Source: Gammaproteobacteria bacterium (GTDB taxonomy: Bacteria > Pseudomonadota > Gammaproteobacteria > Eutrophobiales > Eutrophobiaceae). From it: a stretch of DNA of 64,000 nucleotides. Position numbers and translations under genes: made by a program. Below the pieces are notes generated by a model. The model did not search any database. It was not told where the DNA came from and saw only the letters and a program-made list of their open reading frames with translations. The DNA is taken from the NCBI GenBank assembly GCA_965221695.1, contig OZ244905.1:2176001-2240000 (forward strand), read 5' to 3'. Below, in pieces: positions 11,862 to 26,426 of the stretch (position 1 is the stretch's first letter; each line of letters starts with the position of its first letter).

Positions 11862-11934
11862 GGGTCGTTAGCTCAGTCGGTAGAGCAGCTGACTTTTAAT
11901 CAGTTGGTCGCAGGTTCGATTCCTGCACGACCCA
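11862..11934 (+). tRNA. tRNA-Lys(UUU); CCA not genome-encoded
   Basis: GGGTCGT/ACGACCC acceptor, anticodon loop CTTTTAA, T-loop TTCGATT; followed by A-TCT rather than A-CCA. Confidence 0.97.
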
Positions 11935-23958: not shown

Positions 23959-25083
23959 ATGAGCAGGGAACATCACATGCCGCCGGCTGGAGGCAGAGGT
24001 TCCGAAGAAATGCACAGTGTTGTAACCCCCCCGGATTTTCGGCTGCCGCCGGAACAGGTTCCCGAGACGGTTGTCGAACACCTCGCGAATGAGGAGCGGG
24101 ACGCGTGTATGCGTCAGATCAAGCGGCTGCTGCGGGAACAGAATGCCGTATTGGTCGCGCATTACTACACTGACCCGGATCTGCAACGGCTCGCGGATGA
24201 AACCGGCGGCCATGTATCCGATTCCCTGGATATGGCGCGCTTTGGCCACGAATCCGACGCGACCACGCTGGTCGTCTGCGGCGTGCGTTTCATGGGCGAG
24301 ACGGCAAAGATACTGAACCCGGAAAAACGGGTGCTGATGCCGGAACTGCAAGCTGATTGCTCCTTGGACCTGGGTTGCCCCGGTGACGCGTTCAACGCCT
24401 TTTGCGACAGCTATCCGGACCGTACCGTCGTGGTCTATGCCAATACCAGCGCCGCAGTGAAAGCGCGCGCCGACTGGATGGTCACGTCTGGCAGCGCGGT
24501 GGAAGTGGTCAGACACCTGGCGGAACAAGGAGAAAAAATCATCTGGGCGCCGGATAAGTACCTGGGCGAATATGTGCGTGAGCAATCCGGCGCGGACATG
24601 ATGTTATGGCAAGGTAGTTGCATCGTCCACGAGGAGTTCAAGGGCAGGGAGCTGGGAGAACTGAGACAAAAACACCCCGCCGCCAAGGTATTGGCGCACC
24701 CGGAATCACCGGCCCCGGTCATTGCCCAGGCCGACGTGGTCAGTTCCACCACGGGCATCATCAAGGCGGCGACCGAACTGGCGTCCGATACGTTCATTGT
24801 CGCAACCGATAAGGGCATCTTCTACAAGATGCAACAGGCCGCGCCGGACAAGACCTTTATCGAAGCGCCCACAGCCGGCCGGGGAGCCACCTGCAAAAGT
24901 TGCGGCCACTGCCCGTGGATGGCGATGAACAGCCTGACAAAGCTGCTGGAAACACTCCGTTCGGGCGCCAACGAGGTATTTGTCGAAAAGGAGATCATCG
25001 AACGCGCCCGCATACCGATAGAGCGGCTGCTGAACTTTGCCGCGCAACGCAAACAGGTCATCTACGGCAACAGCGACGCCTGA
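23959..25083 (+). CDS. nadA: Quinolinate synthase A
   Basis: [59 protein letters not shown]. Confidence 0.97.
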
Positions 25084-25125
25084 CCCAAGCGTCATAATCG
25101 CACCGCCCAGATTTTTTCCGTTTTT

Positions 25126-25141
25126 TGTGAGTTTTATCACA
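25126..25141. promoter_or_regulatory. Perfect CRP/FNR-superfamily box TGTGA-N6-TCACA
   Basis: TTTTTGTGA GTTTTA TCACAAAAA; centre 25133.5 is -61.5 from a putative TSS at A25195. Confidence 0.7.
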
Positions 25142-25159
25142 AAAACGCGAAAGTTTTCT

Positions 25160-25188
25160 TTGCCGAACAGAACATCTTTTCTCAGAAT
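25160..25188 (+). promoter_or_regulatory. Putative weak sigma70 promoter for the tRNA-like pair (sense strand)
   Basis: TTGCCG (25160-65), 17-bp spacer, CAGAAT (25183-88). Confidence 0.5.
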
Positions 25189-25196
25189 GGGCTGAT

Positions 25197-25227
25197 AAAA
25201 AACCCGTCCCCCTAAGGAGACGGGTTT
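25197..25227 (-). terminator. Intrinsic terminator of antisense unit 1 (possibly weakly bidirectional)
   Basis: CCCGTC/GACGGG GC stem followed by T6 on the minus strand; TTTATTCT on the plus strand. Confidence 0.8.
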
Positions 25228-25232
25228 ATTCT

Positions 25233-25335
25233 GCCCAGGTGGTGAAATCGGCAAACACAGGGGACTGCCACTCCCCCGGCCTCTGTAGCGAAACCTACAT
25301 GCCTTACGGGTTCGAGCCCCGTCCTGGGCACACCA
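25233..25335 (+). tRNA. Non-canonical tRNA: tRNA-Leu-type body, anticodon GCC (Gly), 29-nt variable region, ACACCA 3' end
   Basis: Acceptor GCCCAGG/CCTGGGC; D-arm GTG..CAC with GG; anticodon stem GGGGA/TCCCC, loop CT-GCC-AC; T-arm ACGGG-TTCGAGC-CCCGT. Confidence 0.8.
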
Positions 25336-25350
25336 TAGGCGCCAACAGCC

Positions 25351-25379
25351 ATTATCGTGGCCGGCGCAGGACTTGTCAA
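25351..25379 (-). promoter_or_regulatory. Sigma70 promoter, antisense to tRNA-like unit 1
   Basis: Minus strand reads TTGACA AGTCCTGCGCCGGCCAC GATAAT (17-bp spacer). Confidence 0.8.
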
Positions 25380-25385
25380 TATGAT

Positions 25386-25417
25386 AAAAAAACCCGTCCC
25401 CCGAAAGGGACGGGTTT
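25386..25417 (-). terminator. Intrinsic terminator of antisense unit 2
   Basis: CCCGTCCC/GGGACGGG stem followed by T7 on the minus strand. Confidence 0.82.
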
Positions 25418-25422
25418 ATTCT

Positions 25423-25525
25423 GCCCAGGTGGTGAAAACGGTAAACACAGGGGACTGTCACTCCCCCGGCCTCTGTAGTCAGACCTACATGCCTTACGGG
25501 TTCGAGCCCCGTCCTGGGCACACCA
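25423..25525 (+). tRNA. Non-canonical tRNA: tRNA-Leu-type body, anticodon GUC (Asp), 29-nt variable region, ACACCA 3' end
   Basis: Same stems as copy 1; anticodon loop CT-GTC-AC (25455-25461). Confidence 0.8.
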
Positions 25526-25540
25526 TAGGCGCCAACAGCC

Positions 25541-25569
25541 ATTATCGTAGCCGTACAGGGGGCTGTCAA
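25541..25569 (-). promoter_or_regulatory. Sigma70 promoter, antisense to tRNA-like unit 2
   Basis: Minus strand reads TTGACA GCCCCCTGTACGGCTAC GATAAT (17-bp spacer). Confidence 0.8.
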
Positions 25570-25679
25570 CAACATTTCGCGTACAGAAATCCGCGCGCAA
25601 TATATCAAGATATGCGTCTGCCCTGACTTGAATTATAAAACCATAAATGGGAACATTCCGTTAAAACCCGGAAAGAGAT

Positions 25680-26426
25680 ATGGCAGGACACAGCAAGTGG
25701 GCGAACATCCAGCATCGCAAGGGCCGACAGGACGCCAAGCGAGGTAAATTATTCAGCAGGTTGATCCGCGAGGTCACGGTATCCGCCCGGCTCGGCGGCC
25801 CCGACCCGGACGGTAACCCGAGGTTGCGCGCGGCCATCGACAATGCGCTGGCCGGCAACATGCCCAAGGACACCATCGAACGGGCTGTGAAGCGCGGCGC
25901 GGGCGGCGCGGAAGGCGAAAGCCTGGAAGAAGTGCGCTACGAAGGATACGGACCGGGCGGGGTCGCGGTAATGGTTGATTGCATGACTGACAACCGTAAC
26001 CGCACTGTCGCTGAGGTGCGGCACGCCTTCTCCAAATGTGGCGGCAATCTTGGCACTGACGGTTCCGTCGCATACCTGTTTTCCAAGGTTGGGCAGCTTT
26101 CCTACCCGTCTGGCACCGATGATGACGCCTTGTTGGAGGCTGCGTTGGAAGCGGGCGCGGAGGATATTGCAAACAATGATGACGGAACCGTTGACGTCTT
26201 GACCACACCGGAAGACTTTCTCGACGTCAGGGACAGCTTGGTTGAGACAGGTTTCCCGCCCGATGCCGCAGAGGTAACGATGCGCGCGGCAACCGGGCAG
26301 ACGCTGGACTTGCGTGGCGCGCAGACCATGACGTTGCTACTGGACACGCTGGAAGACCTGAACGATGTGCAGAAAGTGTATTCCAACGCGGATATTCCCG
26401 ATGAAATCCTGGCCCAGCTTGATTGA
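25680..26426 (+). CDS. yebC: YebC/PmpR family protein
   Basis: [33 protein letters not shown]. Confidence 0.98.

Follow-up and report, generated by a model that had tools for sequence, protein, structure and literature searches.

Why should a bacterium with a complete set of canonical transfer RNA (tRNA) genes carry further tRNA-shaped genes, in which the body of a leucine tRNA is combined with anticodons for glycine and aspartate? The question is raised by two elements, tRNA-like 1 and tRNA-like 2, which lie in tandem in a stretch of 64,000 nucleotides (nt) from a member of the Gammaproteobacteria (assembly GCA_965221695.1, contig OZ244905.1, positions 2,176,001 to 2,240,000 of the forward strand); this whole stretch is called the window here, and coordinates without a genome or locus handle are counted from its first letter. 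The best explanation that we can offer, and one that we hold tentatively, is that the two are tRNA-shaped effectors, probably charged by leucyl-tRNA synthetase (LeuRS) and restrained by cis-antisense RNAs in a toxin-antitoxin-like cassette. The anatomy of the elements, their conservation and the pattern of selection acting on them are the observed part of this explanation. What had looked like a stray tRNA that mistranslates is now more likely to be a sense/antisense cassette under regulation, because of the predicted antisense genes, the apparently regulated plus-strand promoter, the patchy multi-copy family spread through a genus, a hypervariable loop, and the frequent neighbourhood of RTX genes.

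A preliminary description of the locus, made from the letters alone, had proposed that both elements fold as class II cloverleaves, and alignment and folding bear this out. On the plus strand both match RF00005, the Rfam tRNA family, over its full length (52.1 bits and E 2.9e-10 for tRNA-like 1, 53.3 bits and E 1.4e-10 for tRNA-like 2; gathering score 29), the variable region holding an insert of 27 nt, and the ViennaRNA minimum-energy fold is the exact cloverleaf for tRNA-like 2 and nearly so for tRNA-like 1. Both have the 7-bp acceptor stem (GCCCAGG/CCTGGGC), a 3-bp D stem, the anticodon stem GGGGA/UCCCC, a 5-bp T stem with a UUCGA loop, and A73; the anticodon loops read CUGCCAC and CUGUCAC, the latter being identical to the loop of the tRNA-Asp of the same genome. 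The variable stem is flanked by one unpaired base on its 5' side and two on its 3' side, again as described and as in canonical tRNA-Leu(UAA). The variable arm had rightly been called long, but its extent was understated, since the region measures 29 nt, far beyond that of the parent tRNA-Leu, and has in both elements an extra hairpin of about 16 nt set into it. The Rfam alignment, the fold and the pair counts also agree that the geometry is not that of the allo-tRNAs, the acceptor and T stems having 7 and 5 pairs, not 8/4 or 9/3. The span first given for the pair, 25233-25525, does hold both elements, but it takes in the trailing CACCA and the true end is 25520. ARAGORN, run on the window, reported only a tRNA-Lys and passed over both elements because of their long variable arm, so this miss does not count against their being tRNAs.

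The leucine-type body is equally clear. When tRNA-like 1 is aligned with a canonical tRNA-Leu(UAA) from a metagenome contig (L106:3597-3678), 73 of 82 positions are identical, four of the nine differences fall in the anticodon loop, and the D arm and stems are the same except for pair 49:65, which is A:U. With the tRNA-Leu(UAA) of its own genome it shares 69 of 84 positions, and with the tRNA-Asp and tRNA-Gly of that genome 59% and 73%, in poor alignments. Canonical bacterial tRNA-Leu(UAA) and the elements thus have in common the acceptor stem, D arm, anticodon stem, base of the variable arm, T arm and A73; they differ in the loop (CUGYCAC instead of CUUAAAA), the inserted variable-arm hairpin and the 49:65 pair, and the setting also differs, the elements having a leader hairpin and an antisense promoter. 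Bacterial tRNA-Gly and tRNA-Asp have a short variable loop and the discriminator U73 (Gly) or G73 (Asp). The elements, with their 29-nt variable region and A73, therefore have the body of neither, although the anticodon and its loop are cognate; equally, GCC and GUC are not leucine anticodons (NAG or YAA). The comparison of identities and the fold together uphold the view of the pair as chimeras, a tRNA-Leu body with A73 bearing a Gly (GCC) or an Asp (GUC) anticodon. The genome (3.54 Mb, one contig) has a complete canonical set of 44 tRNAs, including five tRNA-Leu and a single copy each of tRNA-Gly(GCC) and tRNA-Asp(GUC), so that its three chimeric elements are surplus.

LeuRS is described as ignoring the anticodon bases, with A73 as a recognition element (PMC11028032, PMC2377443), and because the enzyme is blind to the anticodon, a mature plus-strand RNA would most likely be leucylated. 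A dedicated second synthetase was not found in the five genomes searched for it: each has one strong LeuRS-domain match (234-247 bits), the others being weak (21-34 bits), and the matches are alike in genomes with the element (G000, which is the genome of the window, G003 and G008) and without it (G012 and G019).

The elements are no chance similarity: they are parts of a 190-bp tandem unit (94% identity over 167 nt), a third copy adjoins tRNA-Leu(CAG) elsewhere in the same genome (G000:C1:285570-285667), and 34 full copies exist in the genus. A covariance model (R1) built from these 34 copies and used for the genome scans gives tRNA-like 1 117.4 bits and tRNA-like 2 117.6 bits, within the 103-120 bits of the family, and its next-best match, at about 72 bits in 19 of 23 genomes, is the 84-nt tRNA-Leu(UAA), with a 64-bit Leu-like match in one more. 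The 23 genomes are those of the host genus, uncultured Gammaproteobacteria apparently associated with sponges and corals; they hold, besides the full copies, one 5'-truncated copy and one divergent relative. Full copies occur in 13 of them, from 1 to 10 per genome and sometimes in tandem arrays. The anticodon is GCC 18 times and GUC 16 times, G34 and C36 never changing; U33 is present in 31 of the 34 and A73 in 33.

No family member was found in 103 other genomes from 33 genera of the same order (126 genomes of 34 genera searched altogether), and a scan of one genome per GTDB species gave none outside the metagenome-assembled genomes of this genus, bar one 3-kb contig binned as Acidimicrobiia. 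This contig (L054, 3,037 bp) holds three full units, with the anticodons GUC, GCU and AUC, and one truncated unit; it is probably mis-binned, its real source being the gammaproteobacterial genus. Among metagenomes, where 80 loci of 92 reported stretches were examined, there are at least six further copies, along with at least about 65 ordinary tRNA-Leu(UAA) genes of other bacteria. A phage origin was considered and dropped: two viral contigs fit the 5' pattern, but both carry canonical tRNA-Leu(UAA) genes. The divergent relative, in G001 (G001:C12:104381-104465; L160, 282-366), is an 85-nt Leu-like class II tRNA with the anticodon CGC (Ala) and a variable arm of normal length, having an A run and a hairpin on its 5' side and a minus-strand TTGATA-17 nt-TATAAT on its 3' side, and looks like an older or divergent member of the cassette type. 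In another genus of the same family, an 85-nt match to R1 (G106:C114:360-444) scores 76 bits, near the score of the G001 relative and above the usual 72 of tRNA-Leu(UAA).

Across 33 distinct sequences, pairing is kept in 99.5% of 924 stem cells, with double compensatory changes at three pairs (5:68, 6:67 and 31:39). No change is seen at U8, A14, G18, G19, A21 or the UUC-A of the T loop; variation is found at positions 16, 17, 20, 32, 35, 38, 59 and 60 and in the variable loop. The stem cells include 14 G.U pairs at five pair positions, three of these positions being common to 3-6 copies, and five A.C mismatches, each a singleton. Comparison between genomes gives a mean identity of 0.94 for the stems, 0.50 for the variable-arm loop and 0.43 for the antisense-promoter spacer; loop and spacer are thus near saturation while the stems and anticodon are kept, indicating that the tRNA is under constraint. 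Decay into pseudogenes, which the preliminary description had named as an alternative, is ruled out by the pairing, by the three compensatory pairs and by substitutions that fall only where real tRNAs vary. A protein-coding reading of the units was likewise rejected, because the variable loop is 6 or 7 nt long in different copies, the stems compensate, and in the window ATG-GGC is followed by a TGA stop. Long open reading frames do cross the units, for instance at 24706-25608 on the minus strand and 25357-25626 on the plus strand in the window, and repeated 'MGIKKPVPREG...' frames are seen in the G003 array (L031).

One part of the molecule behaves differently. When eight recently duplicated copies of the G003 array are compared, the variable-arm loop has an identity of 0.53, whereas the 240 other 7-column windows of the unit all reach at least 0.76 (median 0.96) and even the antisense-promoter spacer stands at 0.945. 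The anticodon loop belongs to the windows that follow the variable-arm loop in variability. This pattern points to diversifying selection or a targeted process acting on the variable-arm loop.

The minus strand carries what would be the second partner. Each unit has a near-consensus promoter that points into the tRNA-like sequence from its 3' side, and a hairpin that would serve as an intrinsic terminator beyond its 5' end (Table 1). TTGACA, a spacer of exactly 17 nt and a -10 box are found in 34 of 34 copies (GATAAT in 24, GATACT in 6, CATAAT in 2, AATAAT and GACAAT in one each), and the hairpin preceded by a run of A6-8, a U run on the minus strand, is kept in all 34 as well. Within 100 nt, an antisense promoter with at least 10 of 12 consensus matches accompanies all three family copies of this genome but not one of its 44 canonical tRNA genes. 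The predicted minus-strand RNAs 1 and 2 fold at z = -3.6 and -3.5, against -1.2 to -1.3 for the tRNA alone. By these signals, an antisense RNA over the whole tRNA would have no weaker support than the tRNA transcript, and the locus would be a convergent, fully overlapping pair of a regulated tRNA transcript and a constitutive antisense RNA, both predicted. The sequence signals predict an antisense gene in cis that overlaps the sense gene and has both a promoter and a terminator to itself; a conserved open reading frame for a toxic peptide, as in type I toxin-antitoxin systems, is absent from the units.

Other identities for the minus-strand RNA did not hold. In the Rfam comparison at E up to 10 this strand matched only ncr1175, Betaproteobacteria toxic sRNA and anti-hemB, with 15-24 bits where the gathering scores are about 50-60, and we regard these as chance matches driven by the terminator. 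A T-box-like sensor was rejected as well: Rfam gave no T-box match at E up to 10 over 25000-25700, the UGGN triplets opposite CCA do not follow the anticodon type, and no gene comes after the minus-strand terminator within the window.

On the plus strand, the candidate start signals of tRNA-like 1 are a palindrome and a weak promoter with a gap of 18 nt between the palindrome and the -35 box. We take the palindrome to be of the CRP/FNR type, and its spacing presumably suits a class I activator site; two proteins of the CRP/FNR family are encoded in the genome, near G000 648207 and 945738. Exact TGTGA-N6-TCACA sites number nine in the genome, against 2.6 expected from base composition, and six of the nine have a common register of palindrome, -35 and -10. 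Three of the six stand before copies of an unknown RNA of about 300 nt; the others are found ahead of a long proS leader, of a small helix-hairpin-helix gene that has leuS behind it, and of the chimeric tRNA unit. A seventh site lies in the prmB-aceA spacer. The palindrome TGTGAGTTTTCTCACA, flanked by A/T runs, is seen at G000:C1 424821, 427661, 828838, 925250, 1442746 and 2174469, in addition to the site in the window. The gene leuS lies at positions 1-1590 of the window, 25 kb upstream of the elements, with the palindrome operator in common, and the proS leader behind its palindrome promoter is about 390 nt long. Judged from these sites, this looks like a small regulon linking two aminoacyl-tRNA synthetase genes, leuS and proS, to Leu-bodied tRNAs. 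In most of the first-in-array copies of other genomes, the palindrome stands at -105 to -110 with a good -10 box (TAAAAT, TACAAT or TATAAT) and a weak -35 box, and tandem-internal copies have no palindrome promoter.

The three regions of about 300 nt (L194-L196; G000:C1 at about 424900-425250, 427750-428100 and 828900-829300) are unannotated, seemingly structured and without an open reading frame in that direction, and they have a 3' motif, GGCGCCAGGGGG, in common with the proS leader. Rfam gave no family for them at E 0.001 or better, and they may represent an undescribed RNA family.

Taken together, each unit would be a small cassette of convergent sense and antisense RNAs, whose core is a gene descended from tRNA-Leu(UAA). 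On the plus strand, the activator-dependent palindrome promoter would yield a precursor consisting of the leader hairpin and one or more 98-nt class II tRNAs, and the mature RNA, most likely charged with leucine, would insert Leu at GGY or GAY codons, which make up about 12% of the codons in the genome. A tRNA of this sort ought to do harm. On the minus strand, every unit would use its near-consensus, constitutive promoter to make an RNA of about 150 nt, complementary to tRNA and leader and ending at a strong terminator. This RNA would pair with the tRNA precursor and silence it, much as a type I antitoxin RNA does, and the hypervariable loop of the variable arm would be the likely first contact, making each sense/antisense pair cognate. 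We infer transcription of both strands, processing, leucylation, toxicity and antisense repression from sequence signals. The patchy, multi-copy and insertion-like spread of the units, and the HigB/HigA-like genes in the G003 array, fit a toxin-antitoxin-like cassette. Odd tRNAs have been described as often lying near toxin-antitoxin systems (PMC5389517), and hairpin insertions in the variable arm are reported to be able to leave a tRNA translationally active (PMC7590224).

Several observations weigh against the cassette with a leucylated tRNA as effector. The expression signals that match the consensus best are on the minus strand, and the plus-strand promoter is poor, with 8 of 12 matches and a score under the promoter-scan threshold; such a score is, on the other hand, what would be expected of an activator-dependent promoter. 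The leader hairpin with its U-rich tail could terminate plus-strand transcripts ahead of the tRNA. CCA is in register in only 14 of the 34 copies, shifted by one base in 7 and by two bases in 11 (among them all three of this genome), and absent in 2; the 3' end of the window copies reads A-CA-CCA, so that, unless endonucleolytic 3' processing and CCA addition took place, they would be two bases too long. Nor is the anticodon invariable, as the GCU and AUC of L054 and the CGC of the G001 relative show. When the wobble pairs and mismatches are counted as events, G.U (about 5) and A.C (5) are equal, which leaves the strand under structural selection unsettled. Finally, the role of a toxin alone leaves unexplained both the choice of Gly and Asp and the nine loci at which units adjoin RTX genes.

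A more specific form of the cassette can be imagined, namely an all-RNA toxin-antitoxin (or abortive-infection-like) module in which a mistranslating Leu tRNA would be the toxin, the constitutive cis-antisense RNA the antitoxin, and the variable loop a kissing loop that keeps up to ten copies per genome apart. We regard this full form as doubtful, though not negligible. If it were true, loss of the short-lived antisense RNA would place Leu at about 12% of codons, translation would collapse, and the Gly/Asp-rich RTX genes would be hit hardest; it would also be a new kind of module.

The positions of the signals discussed above are collected in Table 1.

Table 1 Elements and predicted expression signals of the chimeric tRNA unit in the window
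Feature	Position	Strand	Description
Palindrome TGTGAGTTTTATCACA	25126-25141	+	Candidate operator of CRP/FNR type, about 107 nt upstream of tRNA-like 1
Predicted plus-strand promoter	25160-25188	+	-35 TTGCCG (25160-25165), 17 nt, -10 CAGAAT (25183-25188); start at about 25195
Leader/terminator 1	25197-25230	both	A6 run, G+C hairpin, U-rich tail; on the minus strand hairpin and U6, a strong intrinsic terminator; on the plus strand 5' leader of tRNA-like 1
tRNA-like 1	25233-25330	+	98 nt; anticodon GCC at 25267-25269; A73 then CACCA
Predicted antisense RNA 1	~25344 to 25192	-	About 150 nt; covers tRNA-like 1, trailer and leader; ends inferred from promoter and terminator
Antisense promoter 1	25379-25351	-	TTGACA (25379-25374), 17 nt, GATAAT (25356-25351); 11/12 matches; points into tRNA-like 1
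Leader/terminator 2	25387-25420	both	A7 run and hairpin; minus-strand terminator of antisense RNA 2, 12-pair stem then T run
tRNA-like 2	25423-25520	+	98 nt; same body as tRNA-like 1; anticodon GUC at 25457-25459
Predicted antisense RNA 2	~25534 to 25382	-	About 150 nt; covers tRNA-like 2, trailer and leader; ends inferred
Antisense promoter 2	25569-25541	-	TTGACA, 17 nt, GATAAT; 11/12 matches; points into tRNA-like 2

The prominence of the minus strand suggests an alternative in which its RNA of about 150 nt is the sole functional product, the gene having arisen from an inverted tRNA-Leu gene, and the plus-strand cloverleaf is mere ancestry. Such an RNA might present the GGC or GAC triplet of its 7-nt loop to the anticodon loops of tRNA-Gly(GCC) or tRNA-Asp(GUC), or might have another target; the loop sequence, GUGACAG, is complementary at every position to the 7-nt anticodon loop of the tRNA-Asp of this genome. 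The strongest signals of the locus would then be in the right place, with an 11/12 promoter and a hairpin with U6-8 (34 of 34 copies); the antisense promoter is repeated in every unit of an array and the plus-strand promoter stands only at the first; the minus-strand RNAs have by far the lower folding z-scores; and at the nine RTX loci the minus-strand gene is co-directional with the RTX gene and lies just beyond it. But the complement of a tRNA would need neither U8, A14, G18G19 and UUCRA nor a restriction of change to positions 16, 17, 20, 59 and 60, and the plus-strand G.U pairs common to several species would be A.C mismatches in a minus-strand RNA. The plus-strand promoter block is, moreover, conserved with the element even where there is no other downstream gene, and the minus-strand Rfam matches are just the weak, terminator-driven ones mentioned above. 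We consider this alternative improbable.

The same may be said of the possibility that the plus-strand RNAs are uncharged mimics. They would act either as decoys for an anticodon-loop nuclease or modification enzyme directed against tRNA-Asp and tRNA-Gly, or as deacylated ligands of the A site at GGY and GAY codons, slowing ribosomes or triggering the stringent response. The identity of the GUC-type loop with that of the real tRNA-Asp is what a decoy would call for, and CCA is out of register or absent in 20 of the 34 copies. The predicted tight antisense control and the variable islands recall defence and toxin-antitoxin-like elements, and some allo-tRNAs are suspected not to be used in translation (PMC5389517). 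However, the LeuRS-relevant body and A73, which a loop decoy would not need, are kept across the genus. Nor is the CCA argument strong, because 6 of the 44 canonical tRNA genes of the genome also have no encoded CCA in register, and the organism must therefore add CCA post-transcriptionally; the tRNA-Lys(UUU) gene at 11862-11934 of the window is one of the six. No nuclease or toxin gene adjoins the window copies, whose neighbours are nadA (23959-25083) and yebC (25680-26426).

The neighbourhood of RTX genes invites another explanation, in which the elements are helper tRNAs actually charged with Gly and Asp for decoding the Gly/Asp-rich RTX proteins encoded nearby. At nine loci in eight genomes (G003 twice, G004, G005, G006, G011, G014, G015 and G020) a unit lies 173-604 nt past the stop codon of a large RTX-repeat gene, always convergent with that gene and after the gene's own terminator. 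Six of these RTX proteins contain 17-20% Gly and 14-16% Asp, and about one in three of their codons is GGY or GAY, exactly those that GCC and GUC read, compared with 12.2% genome-wide. Exactly the two matching anticodons are used, each served by a single canonical gene in the genome. The anticodon holds major identity elements for GlyRS and AspRS; a single C/U exchange at position 35 would convert the anticodon together with the identity that is based on it, and C38 and G10, which are identity elements for E. coli AspRS, are present in the elements. On the other side stand A73 in place of U73 (Gly) or G73 (Asp), C:G at 3:70, and a Leu class II body with a 29-nt variable arm, an arm that faces class II synthetases such as AspRS and GlyRS. 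Duplication of the cognate genes would have been far simpler, and the antisense gene would be left without a role. The window copies and those of G008 are not near RTX genes, and RTX genes are abundant in all five genomes examined, including G012, which is without the element, so that some adjacency is expected by chance. The RTX link is frequent but not universal, and charging with Gly and Asp seems to us quite improbable.

We also considered whether the unit might be the 3' untranslated region of RTX messenger RNAs, and rejected this because the RTX genes end with their own conserved terminator before the unit begins. For eight of the nine unit-adjacent RTX genes (L032, L031, L036, L042, L014, L016 and L038) this common 3' flank consists of a small hairpin around CACGGAAG and, after it, a terminator made up of a long G+C stem and a T run. 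The C-terminal protein domains of the RTX genes with this flank are only about 40-60% alike.

The largest array, L031 (G003:C1:1145354-1155609), has ten units within 10 kb. Between its units are small genes whose proteins, named from their translations, combine a coiled coil with a membrane helix at the N terminus; a HigB/HigA-like pair (likewise named from translations), an RTX gene fragment and short MITE-like repeats are also present. Small coiled-coil genes like these recur beside units in L032, L035, L036 and L054. An integron attC array was rejected for this ten-copy cluster: no GTTRRRY-type cores were seen at the unit borders by eye, no dedicated search for attC sites or an integrase being made, and the units are cloverleaves, not imperfect palindromes.

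In the window, the spacer between nadA and yebC measures 596 nt, compared with 110-140 nt in three congeners (G003, G014 and G019), where it is empty, which indicates that the unit is an insertion. The spacers are too diverged for its precise borders to be defined, and no sign of a transposase, of terminal inverted repeats or of target duplications was seen when the junctions were read by eye. A selfish or neutral repeat, that is, a mobile tRNA-derived intergenic element homogenised by gene conversion whose RNAs have no function, would account for the patchy distribution within a single genus, the variable copy number, the tandem arrays, this insertion and the truncated copies in G004 and L054, but it is very improbable, since no mobility hallmarks were found at the junctions read and the neutral parts are saturated (0.43-0.50) while stems (0.94), both promoters, terminator and anticodon are kept and stem changes compensate.

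The regulated sense/antisense cassette with a leucylated tRNA therefore remains our preferred, if tentative, reading of the locus, and it has several implications. To our knowledge, natural tRNAs whose body and anticodon disagree are rare. In article texts, taken without their supplements, we found neither a Leu-bodied tRNA of bacteria that has a Gly or Asp anticodon nor any tRNA gene accompanied by an antisense gene of its own. A dedicated antisense gene for each copy suggests how a cell can safely carry a dangerous tRNA. The gene type escapes a standard tRNA finder (ARAGORN), and similar elements may have been overlooked elsewhere. The 16-nt hairpin in the variable arm is of interest to tRNA engineering, and the link with RTX genes in sponge and coral symbionts is noteworthy.

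The closest known counterparts are the nev-tRNAs of nematodes, described as class II tRNAs with Gly(CCC) or Ile(UAU) anticodons that are leucylated in vitro because LeuRS ignores the anticodon (PMC3333845, PMC4300185). They share with our elements the long variable arm and a Leu-type body with a foreign anticodon, glycine included. They differ in being eukaryotic, nematode-specific and transcribed by Pol III, in having other anticodons and, in the passages of those papers drawn on here, in having no antisense partner described; the present family is bacterial, uses GCC and GUC, and has the added variable-arm hairpin and an antisense promoter and terminator for each gene. As a bacterial counterpart of the nev-tRNAs, a Leu body with Gly and Asp anticodons would allow encoded misreading, Gly->Leu and Asp->Leu, to be tested directly.

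Among bacterial systems, tRNAProX of Streptomyces and Kitasatospora is described as having a Pro body, A34 anticodons, A33 and a co-encoded ProRSx (PMC10404621, PMC11415595). Like the present family it is bacterial and genus-restricted and puts other anticodons on one isoacceptor body, and it is thought to be a deliberate mistranslation device. In contrast, our family is found alongside one full-strength LeuRS-domain match per genome in the five genomes searched, has U33 in nearly all copies, and is apparently controlled by antisense RNA. The allo-tRNAs, for which 8/4 or 9/3 geometry and mostly Ser identity are reported (PMC5389517), are likewise odd class II-like tRNAs of uncultured bacteria with diverse anticodons, often near toxin-antitoxin systems or mobile elements; the present family differs in its 7/5 geometry and tRNA-Leu(UAA) body.

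For the predicted mode of control, the nearest parallel is found in E. coli. The Ibs/Sib loci have a multi-copy repeat nature. As described, they too are intergenic cassettes, some of them in tandem, with a cis-antisense RNA of about 150 nt that has its own promoter and terminator and overlaps the opposite gene fully, and repression takes place only between cognate pairs (PMC2943612). The Ibs toxin is a small hydrophobic peptide, whereas the sense gene here is a tRNA and has no conserved open reading frame. CreT is reported to be a small mRNA-like RNA that sequesters a rare tRNA and is repressed by the CRISPR effector guided by CreA (PMC8501985). It is thus also an RNA toxin acting through the tRNA pool and translation and silenced by a partner RNA, but it differs from the present family in being, by that description, neither a tRNA nor antisense-controlled. 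In the mismatch of body and anticodon the elements resemble the nev-tRNAs and tRNAProX, and they belong to neither group.

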